A stretch of DNA of 32,000 bases from Cylindrospermopsis raciborskii Cr2010 (GCF_003367075.2 NZ_CP065936.1:3060001-3092000); one strand, 5' to 3'. Counted from the first letter of the stretch, positions 3,753-20,408 are shown. Notes: generated by a model from the sequence alone, not told the origin. Numbers and translations: made by a program.

Positions 3753-4850
3753 ATGAGCCAAGAAGTAAACCTAAAAAACTTGCCTTTGGGGATAAACACG
3801 CTGGACAAACTGCGTGGTAGTGACTGTGTCTATGTGGACAAAACGCATTTGGCATTAAAACTGATTAAACAACCTGGTGCGTTTTTTTTGTCACGACCAA
3901 GACGCTTTGGCAAAAGTCTATTCAAGGACATCACTATTAGCGAAGCTTACTCATCCATCTGTGGTTATACTGAAACCGATCTGCGAGAGTCCTTCGGTGA
4001 CCACCTTGAGGGAGTAGATTGGGATGCACTGCGCCATTGGTACAATGGTTATAATTGGACAGGTTCAGAGACTGTTTATAACCCCTACGATATCCTCCTC
4101 TTCATTAGCGAAGGCATGAGATTTCGTAATTACTGGTTTGAAACGGGTAGTCCCAGCTTTTTACTCAAACTGTTCCAGAAGGAGCGGTATTTCCTACCTA
4201 ATTTGGAGGGAATGGAGGTAACGGAGGAAATACTTGATTCCTTTGATGTGGAGCAGATTAACCCAGTGACCCTCCTGTTTCAGTCTGGTTATCTGACCAT
4301 TAAGGACACATTTACAGATATCAACCAAATAGTGTTTTGCTTGGGTATACCCAATATGGAGGTGAAGATTGCCCTCAACAACCAGTTTATCAACGCCTAT
4401 ACCAAATTAGTAAACGAAAAATTAGGTGTACAAAGACTGATACATACCCAACTGAGTTCTGGAGATGTAGAAGGCTTAGTCAGCACCATCAAGCGATTAT
4501 TTGCCTCCATTCCTTGGCGGAATTTCACTAATAACGACCTAGCGGATTTTGAAGGATATTATACTTCTGTGATTTACGCCTTCCTCAGTTCCTTGGATGC
4601 TCGAGTGATTCCAGAAGATATCACTAATCATGGTCAGTCGGACTTAACTGTTATGGTGGAGGGACACATTTATGTGATGGAAATCAAGGTGGTAGAGGGG
4701 AATCAAGTCCGGGATAATGCAGCACTTGACCAAATCCTCCAGCGAAACTATGCTGAAAAATACCGTGGGGAACCGGGAAAATCTGTCCATGAAATTGGTT
4801 TGATATTTAGTCGCAGCCAAAGGGATCTTATACAAGCGAACTGGCAATAA
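3753..4850 (+). CDS. Array copy 1 (A-del-P): internally deleted DUF1703-type paralog that keeps the P-loop and the PD-(D/E)XK domain but lacks the ATPase core
   Basis: 365-aa ORF. The N-terminus MSQEV...SRPRRFGKSLF is joined directly to KDITISEAYSSICGYTE at nt 3922/3923. Relative to full-length copies, 468 bp (156 codons) are missing in frame, including Walker B VLVDEYD. It carries private substitutions not seen in other copies (EGMEV, YYTSVIY, VEGH, RDLIQANWQ). It may be a decaying or nuclease-only derivative. Confidence 0.7.
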   Translation: MSQEVNLKNLPLGINTLDKLRGSDCVYVDKTHLALKLIKQPGAFFLSRPRRFGKSLFKDITISEAYSSICGYTETDLRESFGDHLEGVDWDALRHWYNGYNWTGSETVYNPYDILLFISEGMRFRNYWFETGSPSFLLKLFQKERYFLPNLEGMEVTEEILDSFDVEQINPVTLLFQSGYLTIKDTFTDINQIVFCLGIPNMEVKIALNNQFINAYTKLVNEKLGVQRLIHTQLSSGDVEGLVSTIKRLFASIPWRNFTNNDLADFEGYYTSVIYAFLSSLDARVIPEDITNHGQSDLTVMVEGHIYVMEIKVVEGNQVRDNAALDQILQRNYAEKYRGEPGKSVHEIGLIFSRSQRDLIQANWQ

Positions 4851-4908
4851 GTCTGGTTAAGAATTGACCTGCTCTAATAAGAGCCTAATATATTGGATTA
4901 ATCACTAC

Positions 4909-6477
4909 ATGATGAGCCAAGAAGTAGACGTAAAAAACTTGCCGTTAGGGATAAATACGCTAGACAAAATGCGTGGTAGTAACTGTGTCTATGTGGACAA
5001 AACGAGTTTCGCATTAAGATTAATTAAACAACCTGGAGCGTTCTTTCTGTCACGACCAAGACGCTTTGGCAAAAGTCTATTTGTGGATACTCTGAAGGAG
5101 ATATTCGAGGGGAATGAAAAATTGTTTGAGGGACTCTATATTCATGACAAATGGGACTGGAGTCGTAAATTCCCAGTAATTAAGATTGATTTTGCGGATG
5201 GAGTATTAAAAAACCGGGAAGAGTTGGATAAACGTGTATTAGACCTTTTGCGCAAGAATGCGGAGCGCCTGGGAGTATCCTACGAGTCAAATGATATACC
5301 AGGGAAATTTGGAACCCTGATTGGGGAAGCAGTGGCTAAATATGGTACTAGAGCAGTAGTATTGGTAGATGAATACGACAAACCAATCCTCGATAATATA
5401 GATAACCCAAATATCGCCGCTGAAATGCGAGAGGGACTGAAAAACCTTTACTCAGTGTTGAAGGGTCAAGATGCCAACCTCCAGTTCGTGTTTATGACTG
5501 GAGTCACTAAGTTTTCTAAGGTCAGCCTATTTAGTGGAATTAATCAACTAACGGACATCACCATTGATAAACAATACTCATCCATCTGTGGTTATACTGA
5601 AACCGACCTGCGGGAGTCCTTCGGTGACCACCTTGAGGGAGTAGATTTTGACCAAGTGCGCAATTGGTACAATGGTTATAATTGGACAGGATCGGAGACT
5701 GTTTATAATCCCTATGACATCTTGCTGTTTATTGGAAAAGGCCAAGTTTTCCGTAACTACTGGTTTGAAACGGGTAGTCCCAGCTTTCTACTCAAACTGT
5801 TCCAGAAGGAGCGTTATTTCCTACCCAATTTGGAGGGAATCGAGGTAACGGAGGAAATACTTGATTCCTTTGATGTGGAGCAGATTAACCCAGTGACCCT
5901 CCTGTTTCAGTCTGGTTATCTGACCATTAAGGACACATTTACAGATATCAACCAAATAGTGTTTTGCTTGGGTATACCCAATATGGAGGTGAAGATTGCC
6001 CTCAACAACCAGTTTATCAACGCCTATACCAAATTAGTAAACGAAAAGTTAGGTGTACAAAGACTGATACATACCCAACTGAGTTCTGGAGATGTAGAAG
6101 GCTTAGTCAGCACCATCAAGCGATTATTTGCCTCCATTCCTTGGCGGAATTTCACTAATAATGACCTAGCGGATTTTGAAGGATATTATGCCTCTGTGAT
6201 TTACGCCTTCTTGAGTTCCTTGGATGCTCGAGTGATTCCAGAAGATATCACTAATCATGGTCAGTCGGACTTAACTGTTATGGTGGGGGGACACATCTAT
6301 GTGATGGAAATCAAGGTGGTAGAGGGGAATCAAGTCCGGGATAATGCAGCACTTGACCAAATCCTCCAGCGAAACTATGCTGAAAAATACCGTGGGGAAC
6401 CGGGAAAATCTGTCCATGAAATTGGTTTGATATTTAGTCGCAGCCAACGGAATCTTATACAAGCGGACTGGCACTGA
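4909..6477 (+). CDS. Array copy 2 (A-X-P): AAA-ATPase_like (PF09820-type) + PD-(D/E)XK PDDEXK_9 (PF08011-type) protein
   Basis: Motifs YVDKT, SRPRRFGKS (P-loop), VVLVDEYD (Walker B), FVFMTGV, DLADFEGYY, GQSD...YVMEIKV (D...ExK). The start is taken at ATG 4909 (or 4912, MSQEV, matching copy 1). The TTG at 4864 used by the ORF track lies inside a promoter-like TTGACC and adds 15 non-conserved residues. Confidence 0.85.
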   Translation: MMSQEVDVKNLPLGINTLDKMRGSNCVYVDKTSFALRLIKQPGAFFLSRPRRFGKSLFVDTLKEIFEGNEKLFEGLYIHDKWDWSRKFPVIKIDFADGVLKNREELDKRVLDLLRKNAERLGVSYESNDIPGKFGTLIGEAVAKYGTRAVVLVDEYDKPILDNIDNPNIAAEMREGLKNLYSVLKGQDANLQFVFMTGVTKFSKVSLFSGINQLTDITIDKQYSSICGYTETDLRESFGDHLEGVDFDQVRNWYNGYNWTGSETVYNPYDILLFIGKGQVFRNYWFETGSPSFLLKLFQKERYFLPNLEGIEVTEEILDSFDVEQINPVTLLFQSGYLTIKDTFTDINQIVFCLGIPNMEVKIALNNQFINAYTKLVNEKLGVQRLIHTQLSSGDVEGLVSTIKRLFASIPWRNFTNNDLADFEGYYASVIYAFLSSLDARVIPEDITNHGQSDLTVMVGGHIYVMEIKVVEGNQVRDNAALDQILQRNYAEKYRGEPGKSVHEIGLIFSRSQRNLIQADWH

Positions 6478-6513
6478 ATTTTGACTTTGCAATAATTGCA
6501 ATAATGGGGTGTT

Positions 6514-8067
6514 ATGAATTTACAAAATTTGCCCTTGGGGATCAATACCCTGAGTGTGTTGCGTGAAAACAATTGTGTCTATGTAGATAAAACAAAGTTG
6601 GCTTACCATCTTATCCGGATTGCGGGAAGATTTTTTCTGTCACGACCAAGACGCTTTGGCAAAAGTCTATTTGTGGATACCCTGAAGGAGATATTCGAGG
6701 GGAATGAAAAATTGTTTGAGGGGCTCTATATTCATGACAAATGGGACTGGAGTCGTAAATTCCCAGTAATTAAGATTGATTTTGCGGATGGGGTATTAAA
6801 AAACCGGGAAGAGTTGGATAAACGTGTATTAGACCTTTTGCGCAAGAATGCGGAGCGCCTGGGAGTATCCTACGAGTCAAATGATATACCAGGGAAATTT
6901 GGAACCCTGATTGGGGAAGCAGTGGCTAAATATGGTACTAGAGCAGTAGTACTGGTAGATGAATACGACAAACCAATCCTCGATAATATAGACAATCCAA
7001 ATATCGCCGCTGAAATGCGAGAGGGACTGAAAAACCTTTACTCAGTGCTAAAGGGTCAAGATGCCAACCTCCAGTTCGTGTTTATGACTGGAGTCACTAA
7101 GTTCTCCAACGTCAGCCTATTTAGTGGGATTAATCAACTAACGGACATCACCATTAATAACCAATACTCATCCATCTGTGGTTATACTGAAACCGACCTG
7201 CGGGAGTCCTTCGGTGACCACCTTGAGGGAGTAGATTTTGACCAAGTGCGCAATTGGTACAATGGTTATAATTGGACAGGATCGGAGACTGTTTATAATC
7301 CCTATGACATCTTGCTGTTTATTGGAAAAGGCCAAGTTTTCCGTAACTACTGGTTTGAAACGGGTAGTCCCAGCTTTCTACTCAAACTGTTCCAGAAGGA
7401 GCGTTATTTCCTACCCAATTTGGAGGGAATCGAGGTAACGGAGGAAATACTTGATTCCTTTGATGTGGAGCAGATTAACCCAGTGACCCTCCTGTTTCAG
7501 TCTGGTTATCTGACCATTAAGGACACATTTACAGATATCAACCAAATAGTGTTTTGCTTGGGTATACCCAATATGGAGGTGAAGATTGCCCTCAACAACC
7601 AGTTTATCAACGCCTATACCAAATTAGTAAACGAAAAGTTAGGTGTACAAAGACTGATACATACCCAACTGAGTTCTGGAGATGTAGAAGGCTTAGTCAG
7701 CACCATCAAGCGATTATTTGCCTCCATTCCTTGGCGGAATTTCACTAATAACGACCTAGCGGATTTTGAAGGATATTATGCTTCTGTGATTTACGCCTTC
7801 CTCAGTTCCTTGGATGCTCGAGTGATTCCAGAAGATATCACTAATCATGGTCAGTCGGACTTAACTGTTATGGTGGGGGGACACATCTATGTGATGGAAA
7901 TCAAGGTGGTAGAGGGGAATCAAGTCCGGGATAATGCAGCACTTGACCAAATCCTCCAGCGAAACTATGCTGAAAAATACCGTGGGGAACCGGGAAAATC
8001 TGTCCATGAAATTGGTTTGATATTTAGTCGCAGCCAACGGAATCTTATACAAGCGGACTGGCACTGA
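6514..8067 (+). CDS. Array copy 3 (B-X-P): AAA-ATPase_like + PD-(D/E)XK (PDDEXK_9) protein
   Basis: 517-aa ORF with the same motif set as copy 2. B-type N-terminus MNLQNLPLGINTLSVLRENNCVYVDKTKLAYHLIRIAGRFF. From about nt 6640 it matches copy 2 at an offset of 1590 bp with scattered SNPs. Confidence 0.87.
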   Translation: MNLQNLPLGINTLSVLRENNCVYVDKTKLAYHLIRIAGRFFLSRPRRFGKSLFVDTLKEIFEGNEKLFEGLYIHDKWDWSRKFPVIKIDFADGVLKNREELDKRVLDLLRKNAERLGVSYESNDIPGKFGTLIGEAVAKYGTRAVVLVDEYDKPILDNIDNPNIAAEMREGLKNLYSVLKGQDANLQFVFMTGVTKFSNVSLFSGINQLTDITINNQYSSICGYTETDLRESFGDHLEGVDFDQVRNWYNGYNWTGSETVYNPYDILLFIGKGQVFRNYWFETGSPSFLLKLFQKERYFLPNLEGIEVTEEILDSFDVEQINPVTLLFQSGYLTIKDTFTDINQIVFCLGIPNMEVKIALNNQFINAYTKLVNEKLGVQRLIHTQLSSGDVEGLVSTIKRLFASIPWRNFTNNDLADFEGYYASVIYAFLSSLDARVIPEDITNHGQSDLTVMVGGHIYVMEIKVVEGNQVRDNAALDQILQRNYAEKYRGEPGKSVHEIGLIFSRSQRNLIQADWH

Positions 8068-8103
8068 ATTTTGACTTTGCAATAATTGCAATAATGGGGT
8101 GTT

Positions 8104-9657
8104 ATGAATTTACAAAATTTGCCCTTGGGGATCAATACCCTGAGCGTGTTGCGTGAAAACAATTGTGTCTATGTAGATAAAACAAAGTTGGCTTACCATC
8201 TTATCCGGATTGCAGGAAGATTCTTTTTGTCGCGACCAAGACGCTTTGGCAAAAGTCTATTTGTGGATACCCTGAAAGAGATATTCGAGGGGAATGAAAA
8301 ATTGTTTGAGGGGCTCTATATTCATGACAAATGGGACTGGAGTCGTAAATTCCCAGTAATTAAGATTGATTTTGCTGGTGGTGTGCTCAGAAACCGGGAG
8401 GAGCTGGACAAAAAAATTAATGGTATGCTGTTGAAAACCACAAAGTCCTTGAGGATTAACTGCGAACTGGACGATATTCAAGGACGTTTTGGAGAAATCA
8501 TCGCTGGTGCAAGGGAGCAGTTTGGTGAAAGGGTGGTGGTGCTGGTAGATGAATACGACAAACCAATTCTCGATAATATAGATAAACCAAATATCGCCGC
8601 TGAAATGCGAGAGGGACTGAAAAACTTTTACTCAGTGTTGAAGAGTCAAGATGCCAACCTCCAGTTCGTGTTTATGACTGGAGTCACTAAGTTTTCCAAG
8701 GTCAGCCTATTTAGTGGGATTAATCAACTCAAGGACATCACTATTAGCGAAGCTTACTCATCCATCTGTGGTTATACTGAAACCGACCTGCGAGAGTCCT
8801 TCGGTGACCACCTTGAGGGAGTAGATTTTGACCAAGTGCGCAATTGGTACAATGGTTATAATTGGACAGGTTCAGAGACTGTTTATAACCCCTACGATAT
8901 CCTCCTCTTCATTAGTGAAGGTATGAGATTTCGCAACTACTGGTTTGAGACGGGTAGTCCCACATTCCTAGTCAAGTTGTTTCAAACCAATCGCTATTTC
9001 CTTCCCAACCTGGAACATTTGGAGGTTACAGAGGAGATATTGGAATCCTTTGAAGTAGAAAAGATTAATCCAGTTACCTTGTTGTTTCAATCAGGGTATT
9101 TGACTATTGAACGAACCTTTACCCGTCGCCAACGCTACATGTTTGCACTGAAAATTCCCAACTTGGAAGTTCGTCTGGCATTGAATGACCAGTTTATTAA
9201 CGCCTATACGGAAAATGTGAACGAAAAGAGTGGGATTCAAGACTCTCTATACGAGTTTATGAATAGAGGGGATGTGGAATCAATGATTATGGCAATTAAG
9301 AGATTGTTTGCGGGTATTCCCTGGCGGAATTTCACTAATAATGACCTAGCGGATTTTGAAGGATATTATGCCTCTGTGATTTACGCCTTCTTGAGTTCCT
9401 TAGATGCTAGAGTTATCCCGGAGGACATTAGCAACTATGGTCAAGCGGATATAACCACCATGCTTGGAGCCCATATCTATGTGATGGAAATCAAGGTGGT
9501 AGAGGGGAATCAAGTCCAGGGAAATCCAGCACTTGACCAAATCCTCCAGCGAAACTATGCTGAAAAATACCGTGGGGAACCGGGAAAATCTGTCCATGAG
9601 ATTGGTTTGATATTTAGTCGCAGCCAACAAAATCTTATACAAGCGGACTGGCAATAA
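8104..9657 (+). CDS. Array copy 4 (B-Y-Q): AAA-ATPase_like + PD-(D/E)XK (PDDEXK_9) protein
   Basis: 517-aa ORF with all catalytic motifs intact. Y mid cassette (ELDKKINGMLLKTTKSLRINCELDDIQGR). Q C-half cassette (TFLVKLFQTNRYF...SNYGQADITTMLGAH). Confidence 0.87.
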   Translation: MNLQNLPLGINTLSVLRENNCVYVDKTKLAYHLIRIAGRFFLSRPRRFGKSLFVDTLKEIFEGNEKLFEGLYIHDKWDWSRKFPVIKIDFAGGVLRNREELDKKINGMLLKTTKSLRINCELDDIQGRFGEIIAGAREQFGERVVVLVDEYDKPILDNIDKPNIAAEMREGLKNFYSVLKSQDANLQFVFMTGVTKFSKVSLFSGINQLKDITISEAYSSICGYTETDLRESFGDHLEGVDFDQVRNWYNGYNWTGSETVYNPYDILLFISEGMRFRNYWFETGSPTFLVKLFQTNRYFLPNLEHLEVTEEILESFEVEKINPVTLLFQSGYLTIERTFTRRQRYMFALKIPNLEVRLALNDQFINAYTENVNEKSGIQDSLYEFMNRGDVESMIMAIKRLFAGIPWRNFTNNDLADFEGYYASVIYAFLSSLDARVIPEDISNYGQADITTMLGAHIYVMEIKVVEGNQVQGNPALDQILQRNYAEKYRGEPGKSVHEIGLIFSRSQQNLIQADWQ

Positions 9658-9715
9658 GTCTGGTTAAGAATTGACCTGCTCTAATAAGAGCCTAATATAT
9701 TGGATTAATCACTAC

Positions 9716-11284
9716 ATGATGAGCCAAGAAGTAGACGTAAAAAACTTGCCGTTAGGGATAAATACGCTAGACAAAATGCGTGGTAGTAACTGTGTCTATG
9801 TGGACAAAACGAGTTTCGCATTAAGATTAATTAAACAACCTGGAGCGTTCTTTCTGTCACGACCAAGACGCTTTGGCAAAAGTCTATTTGTGGATACCCT
9901 GAAGGAGATATTCGAGGGGAATGAAAAATTGTTTGAGGGGCTCTATATTCATGACAAATGGGACTGGAGTCGTAAATTCCCAGTAATTAAGATTGATTTT
10001 GCTGGTGGTGTGCTCAGAAACCGGGAGGAGCTGGACAAAAAAATTAATGGTATGCTGTTGAAAACCACAAAGTCCTTGAGGATTAACTGCGAACTGGACG
10101 ATATTCAAGGACGTTTTGGAGAAATCATCGCTGGTGCAAGGGAGCAGTTTGGTGAAAGGGTGGTGGTGCTGGTAGATGAATACGACAAACCAATTCTCGA
10201 TAATATAGATAAACCAAATATCGCCGCTGAAATGCGAGAGGGACTGAAAAACTTTTACTCAGTGTTGAAGAGTCAAGATGCCAACCTCCAGTTCGTGTTT
10301 ATGACTGGAGTCACTAAGTTTTCCAAGGTCAGCCTATTTAGTGGGATTAATCAACTCAAGGACATCACTATTAGCGAAGCTTACTCATCCATCTGTGGTT
10401 ATACTGAAACCGACCTGCGAGAGTCCTTCGGTGACCACCTTGAGGGAGTAGATTTTGACCAAGTGCGCAATTGGTACAATGGTTATAATTGGACAGGTTC
10501 AGAGACTGTTTATAACCCCTACGATATCCTCCTCTTCATTAGTGAAGGTATGAGATTTCGCAACTACTGGTTTGAGACGGGTAGTCCCACATTCCTAGTC
10601 AAGTTGTTTCAAACCAATCGCTATTTCCTTCCCAACCTGGAACATTTGGAGGTTACAGAGGAGATATTGGAATCCTTTGAAGTAGAAAAGATTAATCCAG
10701 TTACCTTGTTGTTTCAATCAGGGTATTTGACTATTGAACGAACCTTTACCCGTCGCCAACGCTACATGTTTGCACTGAAAATTCCCAACTTGGAAGTTCG
10801 TCTGGCATTGAATGACCAGTTTATTAACGCCTATACGGAAAATGTGAACGAAAAGAGTGGGATTCAAGACTCTCTATACGAGTTTATGAATAGAGGGGAT
10901 GTGGAATCAATGATTATGGCAATTAAGAGATTGTTTGCGGGTATTCCCTGGCGGAATTTCACTAATAATGACCTAGCGGATTTTGAAGGATATTATGCCT
11001 CTGTGATTTACGCCTTCTTGAGTTCCTTAGATGCTAGAGTTATCCCGGAGGACATTAGCAACTATGGTCAAGCGGATATAACCACCATGCTTGGAGCCCA
11101 TATCTATGTGATGGAAATCAAGGTGGTAGAGGGGAATCAAGTCCAGGGAAATCCAGCACTTGACCAAATCCTCCAGCGAAACTATGCTGAAAAATACCGT
11201 GGGGAACCGGGAAAATCTGTCCATGAGATTGGTTTGATATTTAGTCGCAGCCAACAAAATCTTATACAAGCGGACTGGCAATAA
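9716..11284 (+). CDS. Array copy 5 (A-Y-Q): AAA-ATPase_like + PD-(D/E)XK (PDDEXK_9) protein
   Basis: After the N-terminal cassette the protein is identical to copy 4. The DNA at 9905-11284 is identical to 8278-9657. Start at ATG 9716/9719 rather than the track's TTG 9671. Confidence 0.85.
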   Translation: MMSQEVDVKNLPLGINTLDKMRGSNCVYVDKTSFALRLIKQPGAFFLSRPRRFGKSLFVDTLKEIFEGNEKLFEGLYIHDKWDWSRKFPVIKIDFAGGVLRNREELDKKINGMLLKTTKSLRINCELDDIQGRFGEIIAGAREQFGERVVVLVDEYDKPILDNIDKPNIAAEMREGLKNFYSVLKSQDANLQFVFMTGVTKFSKVSLFSGINQLKDITISEAYSSICGYTETDLRESFGDHLEGVDFDQVRNWYNGYNWTGSETVYNPYDILLFISEGMRFRNYWFETGSPTFLVKLFQTNRYFLPNLEHLEVTEEILESFEVEKINPVTLLFQSGYLTIERTFTRRQRYMFALKIPNLEVRLALNDQFINAYTENVNEKSGIQDSLYEFMNRGDVESMIMAIKRLFAGIPWRNFTNNDLADFEGYYASVIYAFLSSLDARVIPEDISNYGQADITTMLGAHIYVMEIKVVEGNQVQGNPALDQILQRNYAEKYRGEPGKSVHEIGLIFSRSQQNLIQADWQ

Positions 11285-11342
11285 GTCTGGTTAAGAATTG
11301 ACCTGCTCTAATAAGAGCCTAATATATTGGATTAATCACTAC

Positions 11343-12911
11343 ATGATGAGCCAAGAAGTAGACGTAAAAAACTTGCCGTTAGGGATAAATACGCTAGACA
11401 AAATGCGTGGTAGTAACTGTGTCTATGTGGACAAAACGAGTTTCGCATTAAGATTAATTAAACAACCTGGAGCGTTCTTTCTGTCACGACCAAGACGCTT
11501 TGGCAAAAGTCTATTTGTGGATACCCTGAAGGAGATATTCGAGGGGAATGAAAAATTGTTTGAGGGGCTCTATATTCATGACAAATGGGAATGGAGTCGT
11601 AAATTCCCAGTAATTAAGATTGATTTTGCTGGTGGTGTGCTCAGAAACCGGGAAGAGTTGGATGAAAAGATTCGGGATCTCCTTTGGAATAACGGCGATC
11701 GCCTGGGGGTTGGCTCGAAAAAGAAGAGTATCAGCGGGATTTTTGGAGAAATCATCGCTGGTGCAAGGGAGCAGTTTGGTGAAAGGGTAGTGGTGCTGGT
11801 AGATGAATACGACAAACCGATTCTCGATAATATAGATAACCCAAATATCGCCGCTGAAATGCGAGAGGGACTGAAAAACTTTTACTCAGTGTTGAAGAGT
11901 CAAGATGCCAACCTCCAGTTCGTGTTTATGACTGGAGTCACTAAGTTTTCTAAGGTCAGCCTATTTAGTGGGATTAATCAACTAACGGACATCACTATTA
12001 GCGAAGCTTACTCATCCATCTGTGGTTATACTGAAACCGACCTGCGAGAGTCCTTCGGTGACCACCTTGAGGGAGTAGATTGGGATGCACTGCGCCATTG
12101 GTACAATGGTTATAATTGGACAGGCTCAGAGACTGTTTATAACCCCTACGATATCCTCCTCTTCATTAACGAAGGCATGAGATTTCGTAACTACTGGTTT
12201 GAAACGGGTAGTCCCAGCTTTCTACTCAAACTGTTCCAGAAGGAGCGGTATTTCCTACCTAATTTGGAGGGAATCCAGGTAACGGAGGAAATACTTGATT
12301 CCTTTGATGTGGAGCAGATTAACCCAGTGACCCTCCTGTTTCAGTCTGGTTATCTGACCATTAAGGACATATTTACAGATATCAACCAAATAGTGTTTTG
12401 TTTGGGTATACCCAATATGGAGGTGAAGATTGCTCTCAACAACCAGTTTATCAACGCCTATACCAAATTAGTAAACGAAAAGTTAGGTGTACAAAGACTG
12501 ATACATACCCAACTGAGTTCTGGAGATGTAGAAGGCTTAGTCAGCACCATCAAGCGATTATTTGCCTCCATTCCTTGGCGGAATTTCACTAATAACGACC
12601 TAGCGGATTTTGAAGGATATTATGCTTCTGTGATTTACGCCTTCCTCAGTTCCTTGGATGCTCGAGTTATCCCAGAAGATATCACTAATCATGGTCAGTC
12701 GGACTTAACTGTTATGGTGGGGGGACACATTTATGTGATGGAAATCAAGGTGGTAGAGGGGAATCAAGTCCAGGGAAATCCAGCACTTGACCAAATCCTC
12801 CAGCGAAACTATGCTGAAAAATACCGTGGGGAACCGGGAAAATCTGTCCATGAGATTGGTTTGATATTTAGTCGCAGCCAACAAAATCTTATACAAGCGG
12901 ACTGGCACTAA
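11343..12911 (+). CDS. Array copy 6 (A-Z-P): AAA-ATPase_like + PD-(D/E)XK (PDDEXK_9) protein
   Basis: The spacer and N-terminus are identical to copy 5. Z mid cassette (ELDEKIRDLLWNNGDRLGVGSKKKSISGI), which contains a HIP1 site at 11695-11702. P C-half with the QGNPA tail variant. Start at ATG 11343/11346 rather than TTG 11298. Confidence 0.85.
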   Translation: MMSQEVDVKNLPLGINTLDKMRGSNCVYVDKTSFALRLIKQPGAFFLSRPRRFGKSLFVDTLKEIFEGNEKLFEGLYIHDKWEWSRKFPVIKIDFAGGVLRNREELDEKIRDLLWNNGDRLGVGSKKKSISGIFGEIIAGAREQFGERVVVLVDEYDKPILDNIDNPNIAAEMREGLKNFYSVLKSQDANLQFVFMTGVTKFSKVSLFSGINQLTDITISEAYSSICGYTETDLRESFGDHLEGVDWDALRHWYNGYNWTGSETVYNPYDILLFINEGMRFRNYWFETGSPSFLLKLFQKERYFLPNLEGIQVTEEILDSFDVEQINPVTLLFQSGYLTIKDIFTDINQIVFCLGIPNMEVKIALNNQFINAYTKLVNEKLGVQRLIHTQLSSGDVEGLVSTIKRLFASIPWRNFTNNDLADFEGYYASVIYAFLSSLDARVIPEDITNHGQSDLTVMVGGHIYVMEIKVVEGNQVQGNPALDQILQRNYAEKYRGEPGKSVHEIGLIFSRSQQNLIQADWH

Positions 12912-12938
12912 ATCTTGACTTTGCAATAATGGGGTGTT

Positions 12939-14492
12939 ATGAATTTACAAAATTTGCCCTTGGGGATCAATACCCTGAGTGTGTTGCGTGAAAACAATTG
13001 TGTCTATGTAGATAAAACAAAGTTGGCTTACCATCTTATCAGGATTGCAGGAAGATTCTTTTTGTCACGACCAAGACGCTTTGGCAAAAGTCTATTTGTG
13101 GATACCCTGAAGGAGATATTCGAGGGGAATGAAAAATTGTTTGAGGGACTCTATATTCATGACAAATGGGACTGGAGTTGTAAATTCCCAGTCATTAAGA
13201 TTGATTTTGCTGGTGGTGTTCTCAGAAACCGGGAGGAGCTGGACAAAAAAATTAATGGTATGCTGTTGAAAACCACAAAGTCCTTGAGGATTAACTGCGA
13301 ACTGGACGATATTCAAGGACGTTTTGGAGAAATCATCGCTGGTGCAAGGGAGCAGTTTGGTGAAAGGGTAGTGGTGCTGGTAGATGAATACGACAAACCG
13401 ATTCTCGATAATATAGATAACCCAAATATCGCCGCTGAAATGCGAGAGGGACTGAAAAACTTTTACTCAGTGTTGAAGAGTCAAGATGCCAACCTCCAGT
13501 TCGTGTTTATGACTGGAGTCACTAAGTTTTCTAAGGTCAGCCTATTTAGTGGGATTAATCAACTAACGGACATCACTATTAGCGAAGCTTACTCATCCAT
13601 CTGTGGTTATACTGAAACCGACCTGCGAGAGTCCTTCGGTGACCACCTTGAGGGAGTAGATTGGGATGCACTGCGCCATTGGTACAATGGTTATAATTGG
13701 ACAGGCTCAGAGACTGTTTATAACCCCTACGATATCCTCCTCTTCATTAACGAAGGCATGAGATTTCGTAACTACTGGTTTGAAACGGGTAGTCCCAGCT
13801 TTCTACTCAAACTGTTCCAGAAGGAGCGGTATTTCCTACCTAATTTGGAGGGAATCCAGGTAACGGAGGAAATACTTGATTCCTTTGATGTGGAGCAGAT
13901 TAACCCAGTGACCCTCCTGTTTCAGTCTGGTTATCTGACCATTAAGGACATATTTACAGATATCAACCAAATAGTGTTTTGTTTGGGTATACCCAATATG
14001 GAGGTGAAGATTGCTCTCAACAACCAGTTTATCAACGCCTATACCAAATTAGTAAACGAAAAGTTAGGTGTACAAAGACTGATACATACCCAACTGAGTT
14101 CTGGAGATGTAGAAGGCTTAGTCAGCACCATCAAGCGATTATTTGCCTCCATTCCTTGGCGGAATTTCACTAATAACGACCTAGCGGATTTTGAAGGATA
14201 TTATGCTTCTGTGATTTACGCCTTCCTCAGTTCCTTGGATGCTCGAGTTATCCCAGAAGATATCACTAATCATGGTCAGTCGGACTTAACTGTTATGGTG
14301 GGGGGACACATTTATGTGATGGAAATCAAGGTGGTAGAGGGGAATCAAGTCCGGGATAATGCAGCACTTGACCAAATCCTCCAGCGAAACTATGCTGAAA
14401 AGTACCGTGGGGAACCGAGAAAATCTGTCCATGAAATTGGTTTGATATTTAGTCGCAGCCAACGGAACCTTATACAAGCGGACTGGCACTGA
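12939..14492 (+). CDS. Array copy 7 (B-Y-P): AAA-ATPase_like + PD-(D/E)XK (PDDEXK_9) protein
   Basis: 517-aa ORF. B N-terminus, Y mid cassette as in copies 4 and 5, P C-half as in copy 6. Private change WSCKF. Preceded by the short 27-nt spacer variant. Confidence 0.87.
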   Translation: MNLQNLPLGINTLSVLRENNCVYVDKTKLAYHLIRIAGRFFLSRPRRFGKSLFVDTLKEIFEGNEKLFEGLYIHDKWDWSCKFPVIKIDFAGGVLRNREELDKKINGMLLKTTKSLRINCELDDIQGRFGEIIAGAREQFGERVVVLVDEYDKPILDNIDNPNIAAEMREGLKNFYSVLKSQDANLQFVFMTGVTKFSKVSLFSGINQLTDITISEAYSSICGYTETDLRESFGDHLEGVDWDALRHWYNGYNWTGSETVYNPYDILLFINEGMRFRNYWFETGSPSFLLKLFQKERYFLPNLEGIQVTEEILDSFDVEQINPVTLLFQSGYLTIKDIFTDINQIVFCLGIPNMEVKIALNNQFINAYTKLVNEKLGVQRLIHTQLSSGDVEGLVSTIKRLFASIPWRNFTNNDLADFEGYYASVIYAFLSSLDARVIPEDITNHGQSDLTVMVGGHIYVMEIKVVEGNQVRDNAALDQILQRNYAEKYRGEPRKSVHEIGLIFSRSQRNLIQADWH

Positions 14493-14528
14493 ATCTTGAC
14501 TTTGCAATAATTGCAATAATGGGGTGTT

Positions 14529-16082
14529 ATGAATTTACAAAATTTGCCCTTGGGGATCAATACCCTGAGCGTGTTGCGTGAAAACAATTGTGTCTATGTA
14601 GATAAAACAAAGTTGGCTTACCATCTTATCAGGATTGCAGGAAGATTCTTTTTGTCGCGACCAAGACGCTTTGGTAAAAGTCTATTTGTGGATACCCTGA
14701 AAGAGATATTCGAGGGGAATGAAAAATTGTTTGAGGGGCTCTATATTCATGACAAATGGGAATGGAGTCGTAAGTTTCCCGTAATTAAGATTGATTTTGC
14801 TGGTGGTGTGATCAGAAACCGGGAAGAGTTGGATGAAAAGATTCGGGATCTCCTTTGGAATAATGGCGATCGCCTGGGGGTTGGCTCGAAAAAGAAGAGT
14901 ATCAGCGGGATTTTTGGAGAAATCATCGCTGGTGCAAGGGAGCAGTTTGGTGAAAGGATAGTGGTGCTGGTAGATGAATACGACAAACCGATTCTCGATA
15001 ATATAGACAATCCAAATATCGCCGCTGAAATGCGAGAGGGACTGAAAAACCTTTACTCAGTGTTGAAGAGTCAAGATGCCAACCTCCAGTTCGTGTTTAT
15101 GACTGGAGTCACTAAGTTTTCTAAGGTCAGCCTATTTAGTGGGATTAATCAACTAACGGACATCACTATTAGCGAAGCTTACTCATCCATCTGTGGTTAT
15201 ACTGAAACCGACCTGCGAGAGTCCTTCGGTGACCACCTTGAGGGAGTAGATTGGGATGCACTGCGCCATTGGTACAATGGTTATAATTGGACAGGCTCAG
15301 AGACTGTTTATAACCCCTACGATATCCTCCTCTTCATTAACGAAGGCATGAGATTTCGTAACTACTGGTTTGAAACGGGTAGTCCCAGCTTTCTACTCAA
15401 ACTGTTCCAGAAGGAGCGGTATTTCCTACCTAATTTGGAGGGAATCCAGGTAACGGAGGAAATACTTGATTCCTTTGATGTGGAGCAGATTAACCCAGTG
15501 ACCCTCCTGTTTCAGTCTGGTTATCTGACCATTAAGGACATATTTACAGATATCAACCAAATAGTGTTTTGTTTGGGTATACCCAATATGGAGGTGAAGA
15601 TTGCTCTCAACAACCAGTTTATCAACGCCTATACCAAATTAGTAAACGAAAAGTTAGGTGTACAAAGACTGATACATACCCAACTGAGTTCTGGAGATGT
15701 AGAAGGCTTAGTCAGCACCATCAAGCGATTATTTGCCTCCATTCCTTGGCGGAATTTCACTAATAACGACCTAGCGGATTTTGAAGGATATTATGCTTCT
15801 GTGATTTACGCCTTCCTCAGTTCCTTGGATGCTCGAGTTATCCCAGAAGATATCACTAATCATGGTCAGTCGGACTTAACTGTTATGGTGGGGGGACACA
15901 TTTATGTGATGGAAATCAAGGTGGTAGAGGGGAATCAAGTCCGGGATAATGCAGCACTTGACCAAATCCTCCAGCGAAACTATGCTGAAAAGTACCGTGG
16001 GGAACCGAGAAAATCTGTCCATGAAATTGGTTTGATATTTAGTCGCAGCCAACGGAACCTTATACAAGCGGACTGGCACTGA
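14529..16082 (+). CDS. Array copy 8 (B-Z-P): AAA-ATPase_like + PD-(D/E)XK (PDDEXK_9) protein
   Basis: 517-aa ORF. The C-terminal two thirds are base-identical to copy 7. The N-terminal two fifths are base-identical to copy 9. Confidence 0.87.
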   Translation: MNLQNLPLGINTLSVLRENNCVYVDKTKLAYHLIRIAGRFFLSRPRRFGKSLFVDTLKEIFEGNEKLFEGLYIHDKWEWSRKFPVIKIDFAGGVIRNREELDEKIRDLLWNNGDRLGVGSKKKSISGIFGEIIAGAREQFGERIVVLVDEYDKPILDNIDNPNIAAEMREGLKNLYSVLKSQDANLQFVFMTGVTKFSKVSLFSGINQLTDITISEAYSSICGYTETDLRESFGDHLEGVDWDALRHWYNGYNWTGSETVYNPYDILLFINEGMRFRNYWFETGSPSFLLKLFQKERYFLPNLEGIQVTEEILDSFDVEQINPVTLLFQSGYLTIKDIFTDINQIVFCLGIPNMEVKIALNNQFINAYTKLVNEKLGVQRLIHTQLSSGDVEGLVSTIKRLFASIPWRNFTNNDLADFEGYYASVIYAFLSSLDARVIPEDITNHGQSDLTVMVGGHIYVMEIKVVEGNQVRDNAALDQILQRNYAEKYRGEPRKSVHEIGLIFSRSQRNLIQADWH

Positions 16083-16118
16083 ATCTTGACTTTGCAATAA
16101 TTGCAATAATGGGGTGTT

Positions 16119-17672
16119 ATGAATTTACAAAATTTGCCCTTGGGGATCAATACCCTGAGCGTGTTGCGTGAAAACAATTGTGTCTATGTAGATAAAACAA
16201 AGTTGGCTTACCATCTTATCAGGATTGCAGGAAGATTCTTTTTGTCGCGACCAAGACGCTTTGGTAAAAGTCTATTTGTGGATACCCTGAAAGAGATATT
16301 CGAGGGGAATGAAAAATTGTTTGAGGGGCTCTATATTCATGACAAATGGGAATGGAGTCGTAAGTTTCCCGTAATTAAGATTGATTTTGCTGGTGGTGTG
16401 ATCAGAAACCGGGAAGAGTTGGATGAAAAGATTCGGGATCTCCTTTGGAATAATGGCGATCGCCTGGGGGTTGGCTCGAAAAAGAAGAGTATCAGCGGGA
16501 TTTTTGGAGAAATCATCGCTGGTGCAAGGGAGCAGTTTGGTGAAAGGATAGTGGTGCTGGTAGATGAATACGACAAACCGATTCTCGATAATATAGACAA
16601 TCCAAATATCGCCGCTGAAATGCGAGAGGGACTGAAAAACCTTTACTCAGTGTTGAAGAGTCAAGATGCCAACCTCCAGTTCGTGTTTATGACTGGAGTC
16701 ACTAAGTTTTCTAAGGTCAGCCTATTTAGTGGGATTAATCAACTCAAGGACATCACTATTAGCGAAGCTTACTCATCCATCTGTGGTTATACTGAAACCG
16801 ACCTGCGAGAGTCCTTCGGTGACCACCTTGAGGGAGTAGATTGGGATGCACTGCGCCATTGGTACAATGGTTATAATTGGACAGGTTCAGAGACTGTTTA
16901 TAACCCCTACGATATCCTCCTCTTCATTAGTGAAGGTATGAGATTTCGCAACTACTGGTTTGAGACGGGTAGTCCCACATTCCTAGTCAAGTTGTTTCAA
17001 ACCAATCGCTATTTCCTTCCCAACCTGGAACATTTGGAGGTTACAGAGGAGATATTGGAATCCTTTGAAGTAGAAAAGATTAATCCAGTTACCTTGTTGT
17101 TTCAATCAGGGTATTTGACTATTGAACGAACCTTTACCCGTCGCCAACGCTACATGTTTGCACTGAAAATTCCCAACTTGGAAGTTCGTCTGGCATTGAA
17201 TGACCAGTTTATTAACGCCTATACGGAAAATGTGAACGAAAAGAGTGGGATTCAAGACTCTCTATACGAGTTTATGAATAGAGGGGATGTGGAATCAATG
17301 ATTATGGCAATTAAGAGATTGTTTGCGGGTATTCCCTGGCGGAATTTCACTAATAATGACCTAGCGGATTTTGAAGGATATTATGCCTCTGTGATTTACG
17401 CCTTCTTGAGTTCCTTAGATGCTAGAGTTATCCCGGAGGACATTAGCAACTATGGTCAAGCGGATATAACCACCATGCTTGGAGCCCATATCTATGTGAT
17501 GGAAATCAAGGTGGTAGAGGGGAATCAAGTCCAGGGAAATCCAGCACTTGACCAAATCCTCCAGCGAAACTATGCTGAAAAATACCGTGGGGAACCGGGA
17601 AAATCTGTCCATGAGATTGGTTTGATATTTAGTCGCAGCCAACGGAACCTTATACAAGCGGACTGGCAATAA
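16119..17672 (+). CDS. Array copy 9 (B-Z-Q): AAA-ATPase_like + PD-(D/E)XK (PDDEXK_9) protein, patchwork of copy-8-like and copy-4/5-like segments
   Basis: 517-aa ORF. Positions 16119-16744 are identical to copy 8. The Q cassette from about 16866 matches copy 4 at an offset of 8015 bp. The WDALRH patch resembles copies 6-8. The tail mixes QGNPA (as copies 4-6), RN (as copies 7-8) and WQ-TAA-gtctggtta (as copies 4-5). Confidence 0.87.
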   Translation: MNLQNLPLGINTLSVLRENNCVYVDKTKLAYHLIRIAGRFFLSRPRRFGKSLFVDTLKEIFEGNEKLFEGLYIHDKWEWSRKFPVIKIDFAGGVIRNREELDEKIRDLLWNNGDRLGVGSKKKSISGIFGEIIAGAREQFGERIVVLVDEYDKPILDNIDNPNIAAEMREGLKNLYSVLKSQDANLQFVFMTGVTKFSKVSLFSGINQLKDITISEAYSSICGYTETDLRESFGDHLEGVDWDALRHWYNGYNWTGSETVYNPYDILLFISEGMRFRNYWFETGSPTFLVKLFQTNRYFLPNLEHLEVTEEILESFEVEKINPVTLLFQSGYLTIERTFTRRQRYMFALKIPNLEVRLALNDQFINAYTENVNEKSGIQDSLYEFMNRGDVESMIMAIKRLFAGIPWRNFTNNDLADFEGYYASVIYAFLSSLDARVIPEDISNYGQADITTMLGAHIYVMEIKVVEGNQVQGNPALDQILQRNYAEKYRGEPGKSVHEIGLIFSRSQRNLIQADWQ

Positions 17673-17728: not shown

Positions 17729-17758
17729 TTGACAACTCAACAGTTGGCGTGATAAAAT
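17729..17758 (+). promoter_or_regulatory. Sigma70-type promoter candidate for the small membrane protein and kinase genes
   Basis: TTGACA at 17729-17734, then a 17/18-nt spacer, then ATAAAAT (TAAAAT at 17753-17758). It lies 40 nt upstream of ATG 17798. Motif match only. Confidence 0.4.
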
Positions 17759-17797
17759 ACCATCCACACTGAATCAGTATAGTAGAGTGAAGAAAAA

Positions 17798-18085
17798 ATG
17801 ACAGTTTGGTTGATATGCTTCTTATTATTATTTGCCATAGCGGAGGTATTCAGCTGGGCTTTTGACTGGTTGGGAGAGTTATCTCTACCCTTACCTATAC
17901 ACATTTTGGCAGGGTCAATTTTAGCCGTCGCTTCTAACTATGATAGGATACTAGCTCCTTATAACTATAATGGGGAATTTTGGTCAAGAACATCGAGAAT
18001 AGACAATACTACACCGGAGATAACCGTATCTCCAGCTGCAATTAACTACAATCTTTTAGATCAAGAAAATATTAACAATAACTAA
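17798..18085 (+). CDS. Hypothetical small membrane protein (95 aa)
   Basis: ATG-initiated ORF with two hydrophobic helices (WLICFLLLFAIAEVF and PIHILAGSILAVA) and a purine-rich stretch (gagtgaagaaaaa) before the ATG. No recognisable domain. Confidence 0.5.
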   Translation: MTVWLICFLLLFAIAEVFSWAFDWLGELSLPLPIHILAGSILAVASNYDRILAPYNYNGEFWSRTSRIDNTTPEITVSPAAINYNLLDQENINNN

Positions 18086-18143: not shown

Positions 18144-20408
18144 ATGATTGACCAACTGATCAGGAAAATGCGTATTGCCTCTGTTGCCAATAAAGTCTGT
18201 ACTAGTAAGAACACGAATAGACATATTAAGAAAAACTTAATTGCTAGGTCAAAAAGGGACTTGCATAATTTTTGGTCGGTTATTCTCGCCACCAGTATGG
18301 GAGTAACAGGTGTGATATGGGGGGTGAGCGAGATGAAATGGTTGCAAAGTATGGAGTTAGGTATTTATGACCGAATGTTGCGACTCCGCCATCGAGAACC
18401 CATAGATCGAAGACTTTTATTAGTGACAATTACAGAGGAAGATATAAAAAGGGAAAAATGGCCTCTATCAGATCAAACTGTAAATCAACTAATGAAAAAA
18501 TTGGCATCTTATCAACCAAGAGTAGTAGGGTTAAATATTTATCGTCCTCAACAAAAATATAAAGATTTAGGTAACAATGTAGCAGGATCAGGTCAGGTAA
18601 TTGCAACTTGTCTATTAAGTAATATTGGGAGGTCAGAAGTTCCTCCTCCTGGTAACATTCCCATAGATAATATCGGGTTTGATGATGTGGTTAGTGATAA
18701 TCAAGTGGATCAGGTGATTCGTCGGGGTTTATTATTTGCTGAACCCACGGAGAAAGACGAAAAATGCCAAACGGAATTTTCCTTTGGCACCTTATTAGCT
18801 ATTACATATTTAGATCGGCAGGGTATAGGATACACCTTCGGTCAAAATCAAGAATTGCAAATAGGTAAAGCCGTATTTCACCGCTTAGATAAAAATGCGG
18901 GAGGTTATCAACATGTAGATACAAATGGCTATCAAATTTTATTAAACTATCGTCATCCCCAGGATCTAGCCCAACAGGTTACACTCACACAAGTACTGAA
19001 AGGTAAAATTAAACCAAGTTGGATAAAAGATCGCCTAGTAATTATAGGTGCTACTGCTAGTAGCGTACATCCGGGATACTATACACCCTATAGCAGTTTA
19101 TCTGATCAAAGCCCCAGACTGTCCCGTATGATGATCCATGCCCAGGTGGCCAGTCAAATCATTAGTACAGCACTGGATGGTAGAGCTGTAATTAATTATT
19201 GGTCAGACTGGTTAGAATGGTTATGGATTTGGAGTTATGCAGTTATTGGTGCAATTTTGACCAGAAAATGGCATCATCCTATCCCCATAACAATAGCACT
19301 AATTATGGTCATTGGGTTCAGTTTAGCTATTGTAACTATTTTGTCTTGGCAAGCTATATGGATACCCTTTATTCGACCAGTCCTATGTTTGATCATTAGT
19401 AGTATTGTTGTAATTAGTTATACTAATTATCAAGTACAAAAACAGAACCAGATAATTCTGGACCAGGTGCAAAAACAACAGCAAGCAATTGAGGAAATGA
19501 GTTTGCTATGGGAGCAAAAAACCCAACTTCCCACCCACGTTGACCAGTTTGATTTTGTTGATGCGGTTACATCTGGAGATACGGATTTACTTTTAGCTGG
19601 ACGCTATCAGATCATGAGAAATCTGGCTTCAGGAGGTTTTGGCAGGACTTATTTAGTAGAAGATACTCAAAACCAAAACAAGGATCAGCATCATACCTGT
19701 GTGATTAAGCAATTAATGCCAGCCCGGAGAGATGACAAGTTTTTGCAGGTTGCTCGTAGACTATTTAACACTGAAGCGGAAATTTTAGCCATTGTAGGTC
19801 AACACCCGCAAATTCCCCAACTGTTGGGTTATTTTGAGGATAGACAGGAGTTTTATCTAGTTCAAGAGTATATAGTAGGTCATACTTTAAGTCAAGAGTT
19901 ACCTCCAGTAACGGGTGCTAAAAGCCAGAGTTTTGTTATTGCTATGTTACTAGAAATCTTAGAGATTTTATCTTTTATACATCAACACCATGTAATTCAC
20001 CGGGATATTAAACCTAGCAATATTATGCGACGCCATCAAGATAATCGTCTGTGTTTAATAGATTTTGGCGCAGTGAAATTAATTCAACCTCAAATTAATC
20101 CTGGCACTGAGTCAGCTACGGTTTCCATAGGTACAAGGGGGTATTCACCACCTGAGCAATTGGCTGGTCATCCCCGTTTATCTAGTGATATTTATGCTTT
20201 GGGTATGATTGGGATTCAAGCTATTACTGGAAATTTTCCCCAAGAATTGCCATTAGATCCCCAAACTGGCAATGTGGTTTGGCGGGACTTGGTTAATGTT
20301 AGTGACCACCTGGCAGATATTTTAGACAAAATGGTCTGTTATAATTTTGGCGATCGCTATTTTTCCACCACATCGGTGATTGAGGATTTAAGTCGCAACT
20401 TGTTTTAA
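18144..20408 (+). CDS. CHASE2 sensor domain-containing transmembrane Ser/Thr protein kinase
   Basis: The N-terminal part has a TM helix followed by a CHASE2-like extracytoplasmic region (LELGIYDRMLRLR...). Three TM helices sit around aa 355-430. The C-terminal Hanks kinase has LASGGFGRTYL, CVIKQL, HRDIKPSNIM, DFG and GTRGYSPPE. The start is ambiguous: TTG 18138, ATG 18144 or ATG 18168. Confidence 0.9.
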   Translation: MIDQLIRKMRIASVANKVCTSKNTNRHIKKNLIARSKRDLHNFWSVILATSMGVTGVIWGVSEMKWLQSMELGIYDRMLRLRHREPIDRRLLLVTITEEDIKREKWPLSDQTVNQLMKKLASYQPRVVGLNIYRPQQKYKDLGNNVAGSGQVIATCLLSNIGRSEVPPPGNIPIDNIGFDDVVSDNQVDQVIRRGLLFAEPTEKDEKCQTEFSFGTLLAITYLDRQGIGYTFGQNQELQIGKAVFHRLDKNAGGYQHVDTNGYQILLNYRHPQDLAQQVTLTQVLKGKIKPSWIKDRLVIIGATASSVHPGYYTPYSSLSDQSPRLSRMMIHAQVASQIISTALDGRAVINYWSDWLEWLWIWSYAVIGAILTRKWHHPIPITIALIMVIGFSLAIVTILSWQAIWIPFIRPVLCLIISSIVVISYTNYQVQKQNQIILDQVQKQQQAIEEMSLLWEQKTQLPTHVDQFDFVDAVTSGDTDLLLAGRYQIMRNLASGGFGRTYLVEDTQNQNKDQHHTCVIKQLMPARRDDKFLQVARRLFNTEAEILAIVGQHPQIPQLLGYFEDRQEFYLVQEYIVGHTLSQELPPVTGAKSQSFVIAMLLEILEILSFIHQHHVIHRDIKPSNIMRRHQDNRLCLIDFGAVKLIQPQINPGTESATVSIGTRGYSPPEQLAGHPRLSSDIYALGMIGIQAITGNFPQELPLDPQTGNVVWRDLVNVSDHLADILDKMVCYNFGDRYFSTTSVIEDLSRNLF

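Follow-up and report, generated by a model that had tools for sequence, protein, structure and literature searches.

Cylindrospermopsis (Raphidiopsis) raciborskii Cr2010 carries, within the 32,000-nt stretch of its genome analysed here (NZ_CP065936.1:3060001-3092000, referred to as the window, with positions counted from its first letter), a tandem array of nine head-to-tail genes for proteins that combine an ATPase domain with a C-terminal nuclease domain. The copies are mosaics of discrete, length-preserving variants. Variation is confined to sharply bounded blocks, which come as two N-terminal, three mid-ATPase and two C-half types, and the eight intact genes are eight different combinations of these types; the core of a first-pass annotation, which had read the array in this way from the sequence alone, is supported by the analysis described below. 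The mosaic was very probably produced by general homologous recombination between the copies, with no dedicated device, and we tentatively suggest that the array could be a selected, non-redundant repertoire of defence-type nucleases. In the literature we found no description of this array in Cylindrospermopsis.

The array lies on the plus strand at 3753-17672 and consists of a truncated copy, C1, followed by the intact copies C2 to C9, separated by spacers of 27-58 nt. Reading frames and catalytic motifs are intact in 8/8 of the latter, each of which has its own start codon and the same orientation. Denoting the N-terminal types A and B, the mid-ATPase types X, Y and Z and the C-half types P (with a subtype P') and Q, the intact copies, all on the plus strand, read C2 (4909-6477, A-X-P), C3 (6514-8067, B-X-P), C4 (8104-9657, B-Y-Q), C5 (9716-11284, A-Y-Q), C6 (11343-12911, A-Z-P, subtype P'), C7 (12939-14492, B-Y-P'), C8 (14529-16082, B-Z-P') and, at the 3' edge, C9 (16119-17672, B-Z-Q). 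All B-type copies are 517 aa and all A-type copies 522 aa long, the latter counted from the ATG (4909 for C2). Open reading frames (ORFs) of 537 aa begin at a TTG in the spacer upstream of the A-type copies (4864-4908, 9671-9715 and 11298-11342); gene callers in other strains pick the ATG 45 nt downstream of that TTG and thus a product of 522 aa, in agreement with the start at 4909. C1 (3753-4850, plus strand), at the 5' edge, is a 365-aa remnant with an N-terminus of type A' and a P-type C-half, which has lost the Walker B region to an in-frame deletion: its match to the ATPase family PF09820 is limited to profile positions 1-56, and that to the nuclease family PF08011 is intact. The remnant at this position is shorter in other strains (532 nt). 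Tandem Repeats Finder is blind to the array, since the period exceeds 500.

A nucleotide alignment of the eight units reproduces all type assignments of the first-pass annotation, including its count of eight combinations with none repeated. The N-terminal cassette is of type A in C2, C5 and C6 and of type B in C3, C4, C7, C8 and C9; the mid-ATPase cassette is X in C2 and C3, Y in C4, C5 and C7, and Z in C6, C8 and C9; the C-half is P in C2, C3, C6, C7 and C8, divided into the subtypes P and P', and Q in C4, C5 and C9. The estimate that P and Q differ at about 42 of 118 residues turned out to be exact when counted. The cassettes also preserve length as described, every indel falling within alignment columns 0-74, which hold the spacer and the first codons, and divergence is concentrated in shared, bounded blocks and not evenly spread over the units. 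Other parts of the initial description need to be modified. The three mid-ATPase types are real, but what had been taken for a single block is made up of two sub-blocks, of which alignment columns 347-457 carry all three types and columns 458-513 split only X from Y and Z. The alternation of FDQVRN and WDALRH is likewise present, but rather than assorting freely it merely divides the array into C2-C5 and C6-C9. The same applies to the cassettes at large: the mosaic stands, their independence does not, as three of the eight copies are plain neighbour hybrids and adjacent copies are more similar than in random orderings (p = 0.033, all orderings).

The terminal residue, H or Q, had been listed as a further independent switch and proves to be part of a linked junction block, which runs as one unit from the last codon through the stop codon and the spacer to codon 41 of the following gene. 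A terminal Q is followed by an A-type and a terminal H by a B-type gene start at 9/9 junctions in the window and at every junction seen in other strains. The B-type junction at 6472-6636 (plus strand), for example, comprises the last codon (His) and stop of C2, a 36-nt spacer and the first 41 codons of C3, and the A-type junction at 9652-9853 (plus strand) the last codon (Gln) and stop of C4, a 58-nt spacer and the N-terminal cassette of C5. C9 ends in Q, and a truncated A-type spacer (GTCTGGTTAGG...) follows it directly. The B-type spacer (e.g. 6478-6513, 36 nt) holds a 9-nt tandem duplication, TGCAATAAT, which is present as one copy in the 27-nt spacer upstream of C7 (12912-12938).

The recombination test proposed with the first-pass annotation gave a clear result: the pairwise homoplasy index of the alignment is 0.049, against 0.451 +/- 0.005 in 2000 site permutations (z = -85), 43% of the informative site pairs are incompatible, and the Hudson-Kaplan minimum number of recombination events, Rm, is at least 19. 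Two of the events can be located with base precision. The region's longest exact repeats are arranged in tandem, out of register with the genes, and each exceeds one period by a small margin. In the first (8278-11590, plus strand, period 1627 bp, 2.04 periods), 8278-9963 equals 9905-11590 over 1686 bp, from which it follows that C5 matches C6 exactly in its 5' part and C4 exactly in its 3' part; in the second (13462-16744, plus strand, period 1590 bp, 2.06 periods), 13462-15154 equals 15052-16744 over 1693 bp, and C8 therefore matches C9 in its 5' part and C7 in its 3' part, again exactly. The overlap of the repeated segments delimits the exchange in each case. For C4 and C6 it is a 59-nt interval (9905-9963, plus strand; 1686 = 1627 + 59) that is identical in C4, C5 and C6 and belongs to the conserved block between the N-terminal and mid-ATPase cassettes, and for C7 and C9 a 103-nt interval (15052-15154, plus strand; 1693 = 1590 + 103) in the conserved block after Walker B. 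Both exactly mappable intervals hence lie inside conserved blocks between cassettes, where exchange had been anticipated.

Under a single-breakpoint hybrid model C5 is reproduced with 0 mismatches. C3, composed of a 5' part from C4 and a 3' part from C2, shows 21 mismatches, compared with 303 and 130 to either neighbour alone, and is therefore an older event of the same kind. The hybrid status of C8 is taken from the exact repeats, as alignment gaps at the 5' end of unit 9 made the mismatch test unusable there. C3, C5 and C8 share one polarity, the 5' part coming from the downstream and the 3' part from the upstream neighbour, which is the signature of unequal crossover between misaligned neighbours.

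The proteins encoded beside the array are identical to their counterparts in several C. raciborskii genomes. Loci of other strains were rebuilt from loci anchored on the genes that flank the array; among the assemblies, LYXA01 is strain CS505 (PMC5000824) and CP091284 a Lake Kinneret strain (PMC9303873). The array of CP091284 equals that of the window minus one 1627-bp and one 1590-bp period, C5 and C8 being absent; beyond that, only a P/Q replacement over 611 bp of C1 and 18 scattered differences set the two apart. This gene-conversion patch (4109-4719, plus strand), P-type in the window and Q-type in CP091284, leaves the copy number unchanged and accounts for 181/199 of the differences that separate the arrays. 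Strain GIHE 2018 (VHLJ01) adds three neighbour hybrids, which show 3, 12 and 23 mismatches. The distance from the end of the pyruvate kinase gene upstream of the array to ORF95, a 95-aa ORF downstream of it, is 1.7, 10.9, 13.5, 14.1 and 16.7 kb in five assemblies, and short-read contigs terminate inside the array. The comparison of cassette repertoires across the sampled strains, also suggested initially, shows that all 12 possible combinations occur and that none occurs twice within an array (8/8, 6/6, 8/8 and 10/10 distinct), with subtype X' counted as X (94% nt identity) and subtype W as Z (93%). All cassette types persist in every strain sampled.

Three of the loci deserve separate mention. 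JBFMMC010000042.1 (locus L093, 8307-9872) holds a single intact copy of 521 aa, A'-X'-P, between pyruvate kinase and ORF95, with the N-terminus of the truncated C1 and an intact body, and represents either a true one-copy state reached by deletion or a collapsed assembly. The longest array, 10 full units and the remnant in 16.7 kb, is that of JAZGLX010000001.1 (loci L076/L090), where cassette typing still works and frameshifts split most copies, through uncorrected long-read errors or real decay. In Raphidiopsis brookii D9 (loci L002, L010 and L036) family copies stand at contig ends of the draft genome, with flanks that are not syntenic with the window, and this sister species probably has its own unresolved array or arrays elsewhere. 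One of its tails is 91% nt-identical to the P type, which therefore predates the species.

To characterise the divergence of the cassettes we determined the proportions of silent and replacement differences (pS and pN) by Nei-Gojobori counts. The cassettes are saturated at silent sites, with pS values of 0.87 for A versus B, 0.87 for X versus Y, 0.77 for P versus Q and 0.90 for aa 430-460; the conserved blocks between them are homogenised, with a pS of 0.11-0.19. At the nucleotide level diverged cassette types differ by 37-47%, and the pN between the mid-ATPase cassettes X and Y is 0.31. Within types (X/X', Z/W and P/P') pN/pS is 0.11-0.29; the whole gene has a pN/pS of 0.32, and the highest value found is 0.82, for the mid-ATPase cassettes Y and Z. 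By these counts the array consists of ancient modules under functional constraint, set into sequence whose homogeneity is maintained by recombination.

Each intact copy matches PF09820 (AAA-ATPase_like; 208 bits, cut-off 26.1) and then PF08011 (PDDEXK_9; 65.3 bits, cut-off 25.5), at 1.7e-61 and 5.7e-18 in the case of C3. This ATPase-then-nuclease order is the DUF1703 architecture, and both domains are found in all homologues examined. No NB-ARC, NACHT or other STAND family of Pfam matched at E <= 0.001, PF09820 and PF08011 being the only hits, and no C-terminal LRR, WD40 or TPR sensor is present in the Pfam hits or in the structural model, in which the nuclease domain forms the end of the protein (residue 517). 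A sequence search of the PDB gave no match. The residues GKS 49-51, DE 149-150, D449, E462 and K464 are invariant across 47 aligned sequences and present in all eight full copies. From this 47-sequence alignment we built an AlphaFold2 model of C3 (predicted local distance difference test 79, predicted template modelling score 0.73). The model features a P-loop core with Walker A at residues 44-51 and Walker B on the strand 144-149, a helical domain that reaches to a G-S-P motif (284-286), then a winged-helix-like unit (310-350) with three helices after it, and a PD-(D/E)XK domain (419-517). Its best structural matches in the PDB are Apaf-1 (E = 2.5e-6, ~500 columns), subunits of ORC and the nuclease domains of CinB/CidB, which suggests a fold of the Apaf-1/ORC-like (STAND/initiator) class.

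Mapping of the cassettes on a predicted structure, again a step proposed at the outset, places them on distinct elements of this model. The mid-ATPase cassette (aa 91-144; 6784-6945 in C3, plus strand) corresponds to the two helices that lie between strand b2 and b3, the strand of Walker B (predicted elements E85-89, H98-116, H125-140 and E144-149), and the C-half cassette (aa 287-404; 7372-7725 in C3, plus strand) starts just after the GSP motif and covers the winged-helix-like unit and the three helices that lead to the nuclease domain. In ORC/Cdc6/DnaA and Apaf-1-type proteins the initiator-specific motif (ISM) contacts DNA or lines the centre of the ring, and the mid-ATPase cassette would occupy the position of this motif. 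It is plausible on the basis of the model that the variable modules form specificity or interface surfaces of an ATP-gated nuclease.

The family to which the array belongs is large, with at least 8000 relatives found. It is present on 66 plasmids and patchy across phyla at 65-77% identity, a distribution that points to horizontal transfer. A search of genome contigs returned no copy of the array itself, only relatives of at most 77% aa identity and one fragment at 92%; further paralogues at 73-75% identity exist in C. raciborskii. An exact look-up of C3 in the assembly collection likewise found nothing; ORF95 and the kinase in its ATG-start version are on record there, the TTG-start version of the kinase is not. 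Of 74 loci from other taxa, 18 hold two to five family members spaced no more than 10 kb apart. Tandem paralogues of this kind, in a Haliscomenobacteraceae metagenome-assembled genome (MAG; L014 9327-15505), Halomonas (L051 8367-11527), a Micrococcales MAG (L042 6683-14562), Methylotuvimicrobium and another cyanobacterium (L005 10001-18175), are 90-100% identical over most 60-nt windows, and identity falls to 40-55% in three places, the N-terminus, nt 300-420 and nt 900-1200, which are also the regions that vary in C. raciborskii. In line with this, the positions that vary among the paralogues of the window are also those that vary when 44 homologues of many phyla are aligned (entropy 2.02 vs 0.70, p = 4e-37).

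Taken together, these observations are very probably explained as follows. Neighbouring copies misalign, and unequal crossover creates or deletes one whole period and leaves a hybrid gene, while gene conversion overwrites patches at constant copy number. Exchanges start and resolve only in near-identical stretches, which are in turn maintained by recombination itself; as exchange takes place only where identity is high, the diverged stretches travel as indivisible cassettes with sharp boundaries. The travelling units are three, namely the junction/N-terminal block, the b2-b3 helix pair and the winged-helix/helical block. Up to this point the sequence data show the steps themselves. Beyond it, selection may maintain the old cassette types and favour arrays in which every copy is different. 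The chance of drawing all-distinct combinations at random is 0.046 for 8 copies and 0.004 for 10 copies, and about 0.003-0.012 in a crude neutral simulation of crossover between neighbours. Under this explanation the cassettes might serve as specificity surfaces of an ATP-gated nuclease and the array as a germline repertoire, like plant NLR (nucleotide-binding, leucine-rich repeat) clusters. What this amounts to, and what we advance as a possibility only, is a germline combinatorial repertoire of minimal STAND-like ATP-gated nucleases with three ancient recognition modules, reshuffled within the species by homologous recombination. The function of such proteins may be that of a multi-specificity defence nuclease, most plausibly directed against foreign DNA.

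A number of points weigh against this explanation. PADLOC-DB v2, with 5027 defence-protein models including RdrA and Avs, contains no match at E <= 0.1 for C3 or C4, and NCBIfam and PHROGs gave no match either. The array stands among housekeeping genes, between pyruvate kinase and a CHASE2 kinase, and not in a defence island, and the 118 proteins flanking homologues at 30 loci of other taxa are heterogeneous and include no conserved partner gene. Since pN/pS exceeds 1 in no comparison, between or within cassette types, and most between-type comparisons are saturated, positive selection is not demonstrated. The argument from non-redundancy is built on strains that are not independent and on a simplistic model. 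As for the structure, the Foldseek template modelling scores to Apaf-1 are low (0.22-0.28), so that the fold class is suggested and not proven, and the ISM position of the mid-ATPase cassette is read from topology alone. Finally, the direction of each period event is ambiguous, as a gain in the window and a loss in CP091284 would look the same, and the perfect repeats may have collapsed in the CP091284 assembly. At the loci of other taxa, defence genes (JetC, RmrA and a DRT-like protein) and transposases occasionally occur near homologues.

The alternative that best withstands the evidence is that the array is a purely neutral by-product of concerted evolution, in which stretches too diverged for heteroduplex formation resist exchange and persist as islands, and their combinations have no meaning. 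Unequal crossovers, conversion and homogenisation of the flanks at silent sites, all of which it invokes, are demonstrated here, and it is at ease with the pN/pS values and with the missing defence annotation and context. We nevertheless hold it to be rather unlikely. The C1 P/Q patch shows that whole cassettes are replaceable through their flanks, and drift should therefore remove types fast, before they reach silent saturation, yet 2 x 3 x 2 deep types persist. Nor would an idle by-product be expected to keep frames and catalytic motifs in all eight full copies together with within-type pN/pS values as low as those given above, or to show no repeated combination in any array when ~99% of the simple neutral simulations yield repeats. 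The divergence of the same regions in tandem clusters of unrelated phyla is a further point against it.

The cassette types might alternatively be recent imports from dispersed paralogues or foreign homologues instead of old resident alleles. The wide and patchy distribution of the family across phyla and on plasmids would provide sources for such imports, as would the other paralogues of the species, and the divergence between cassette types (~64% aa identity) is as large as that between phyla. However, every strain examined has the same types, which are differentiated into subtypes of their own (X/X', Z/W and P/P'), the P-type tail is found in R. brookii D9, and no homologue from outside matches Y, Z or Q better than the copies of the array do, all of which makes recent import improbable.

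The combinations, or at least C5 and C8, might also be chimeric or falsely duplicated products of assembly; chimeric assembly had been named in the first-pass annotation among the outcomes that would undo it. Repeat arrays are error-prone and short-read assemblies break here, and C5 and C8 both sit in perfect 3.3-kb repeats and are missing from the close assembly CP091284. Still, independent assemblies of other strains hold the same cassette types in other orders, 6/8 combinations recur in CP091284 with only 18 scattered differences, and both A-Y-Q, the type of C5, and B-Z-P, the type of C8, occur in assemblies of other strains; moreover, the two structures are exactly those that a real unequal crossover leaves, and assemblers tend to collapse perfect repeats, not to create them. 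We therefore regard an artefact as very unlikely.

Programmed variation, by conversion into an expression site, a recombinase shufflon or a diversity-generating retroelement, would fit discrete, length-preserving cassettes flanked by conserved blocks and an array that differs between strains, but is the least credible explanation of all and was rejected, given that all copies are direct, full-length and intact with their own starts and show no division into expression site and silent copies, that no recombinase or reverse transcriptase is encoded in the window or in the syntenic annotated loci (with flanks comprising pyruvate kinase, ORF95, the CHASE2 kinase, amt, LytB and others), that substitutions between types lack an adenine bias (44/169 from A for P versus Q), and that the products are exactly those of reciprocal unequal crossing-over. 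With direct repeats, unbiased substitutions and neither a recombinase nor a reverse transcriptase, general homologous recombination is sufficient.

Among known systems, this recombining tandem array of paralogues comes closest to the DUF1703 expansion of Cardinium and to plant NLR clusters. The only study of the DUF1703 family that we found in the literature concerns Cardinium hertigii cCpun, where the family has expanded to 25 paralogues with a mean aa identity of 39% (Siozios et al. 2019, PMC6387759); RDP4 and PHI there revealed intragenic recombination among the paralogues, horizontal gene transfer was suspected, and the role was left open (PMC6387759). The architecture, the many paralogues per genome and the recombination between them are shared with the present case. 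Homogenisation is absent in Cardinium, and no tandem array, discrete cassettes or strain-dependent copy-number change are described, whereas in C. raciborskii the genes are packed head to tail into a single tight array, the flanks are homogenised, the deep cassette types are few, and recent events can be located.

The NLR (NB-ARC) clusters of plants, such as maize Rp1 and tomato Cf-4/9, evolve by unequal crossing-over and gene conversion. These too consist of head-to-tail genes, for NTPases of the STAND fold that the model suggests here as well, with chimeric paralogues and copy numbers that change between haplotypes, and conserved cores alternate in them with diversified specificity regions; Apaf-1 is the best structural match of the proteins described here. 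The latter differ in being bacterial, only 517 aa long, free of LRR, WD40 and TPR, and equipped with a C-terminal PD-(D/E)XK nuclease as effector, and an immune role for them would be assigned by analogy.

Type I restriction-modification hsdS genes often occur as inverted copies that a site-specific recombinase switches within a clone. As in the array, variable specificity modules lie between conserved recombination sites, and in hsdS new combinations of modules give new specificities, whereas the copies described here are uniformly direct and intact and come without a recombinase. Neisseria pilE/pilS and Borrelia vlsE combine one expressed gene with promoterless, partial silent cassettes and encode surface proteins; what they have in common with the array is segmental gene conversion among homologous cassettes that lie in tandem and have conserved flanks, but every copy of the array is a complete gene for a cytoplasmic enzyme. 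The defence proteins Avs, bNACHT and RdrA resemble the present proteins in coupling a STAND- or AAA+-type NTPase to a nuclease or other effector. A large sensor domain is missing here, and the order, ATPase then nuclease, differs from that in Avs. PF09820 is listed for RdrA, the ATPase of RADAR, in a review (PMC10952713).

Mosaic arrays of paralogues formed by unequal crossing-over and gene conversion are textbook knowledge, and the mechanism by itself is not new. The array is, however, an unusually clean bacterial example, in which single events are mapped to the base and find confirmation in a sister strain whose array differs by just these periods. In distant phyla it is the same modules that remain outside homogenisation, and they map to those parts of an Apaf-1/ORC-like protein that most likely make specific contacts, which offers a testable hypothesis for DUF1703 proteins as modular, multi-specificity nucleases whose specificity would be set by swappable cassettes. 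If true, this would be a general bacterial counterpart of the evolution of plant NLR clusters and would point to a function for a very widespread uncharacterised family. The organism forms toxic blooms, and its phage interactions are poorly understood.

The surroundings of the array include the pyruvate kinase gene upstream (1939-3708) and, downstream, ORF95 (17798-18085) followed by the CHASE2 Ser/Thr kinase gene (18144-20408). A scan of the array for promoters and terminators gave only weak promoter-like matches (9/12), in both A- and B-type junctions, and nothing that would settle the transcription units. The best promoter-like site of the region, with 11/12 consensus positions and a TG extension, precedes ORF95 (within 17729-18085). 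ORF95 has no Pfam match, and its exact sequence is present in 130 blocks of the assembly-collection index. Further downstream, the ammonium-transporter gene (20506-21382) was compared with an intact 463-aa gene of another strain (locus L090 12816-14207) and is a remnant without the first ~150 nt and nt 873-1221 and with additional indels; in strain CP091284 the ammonium transporter is likewise reduced, to a fragment of 191 aa.

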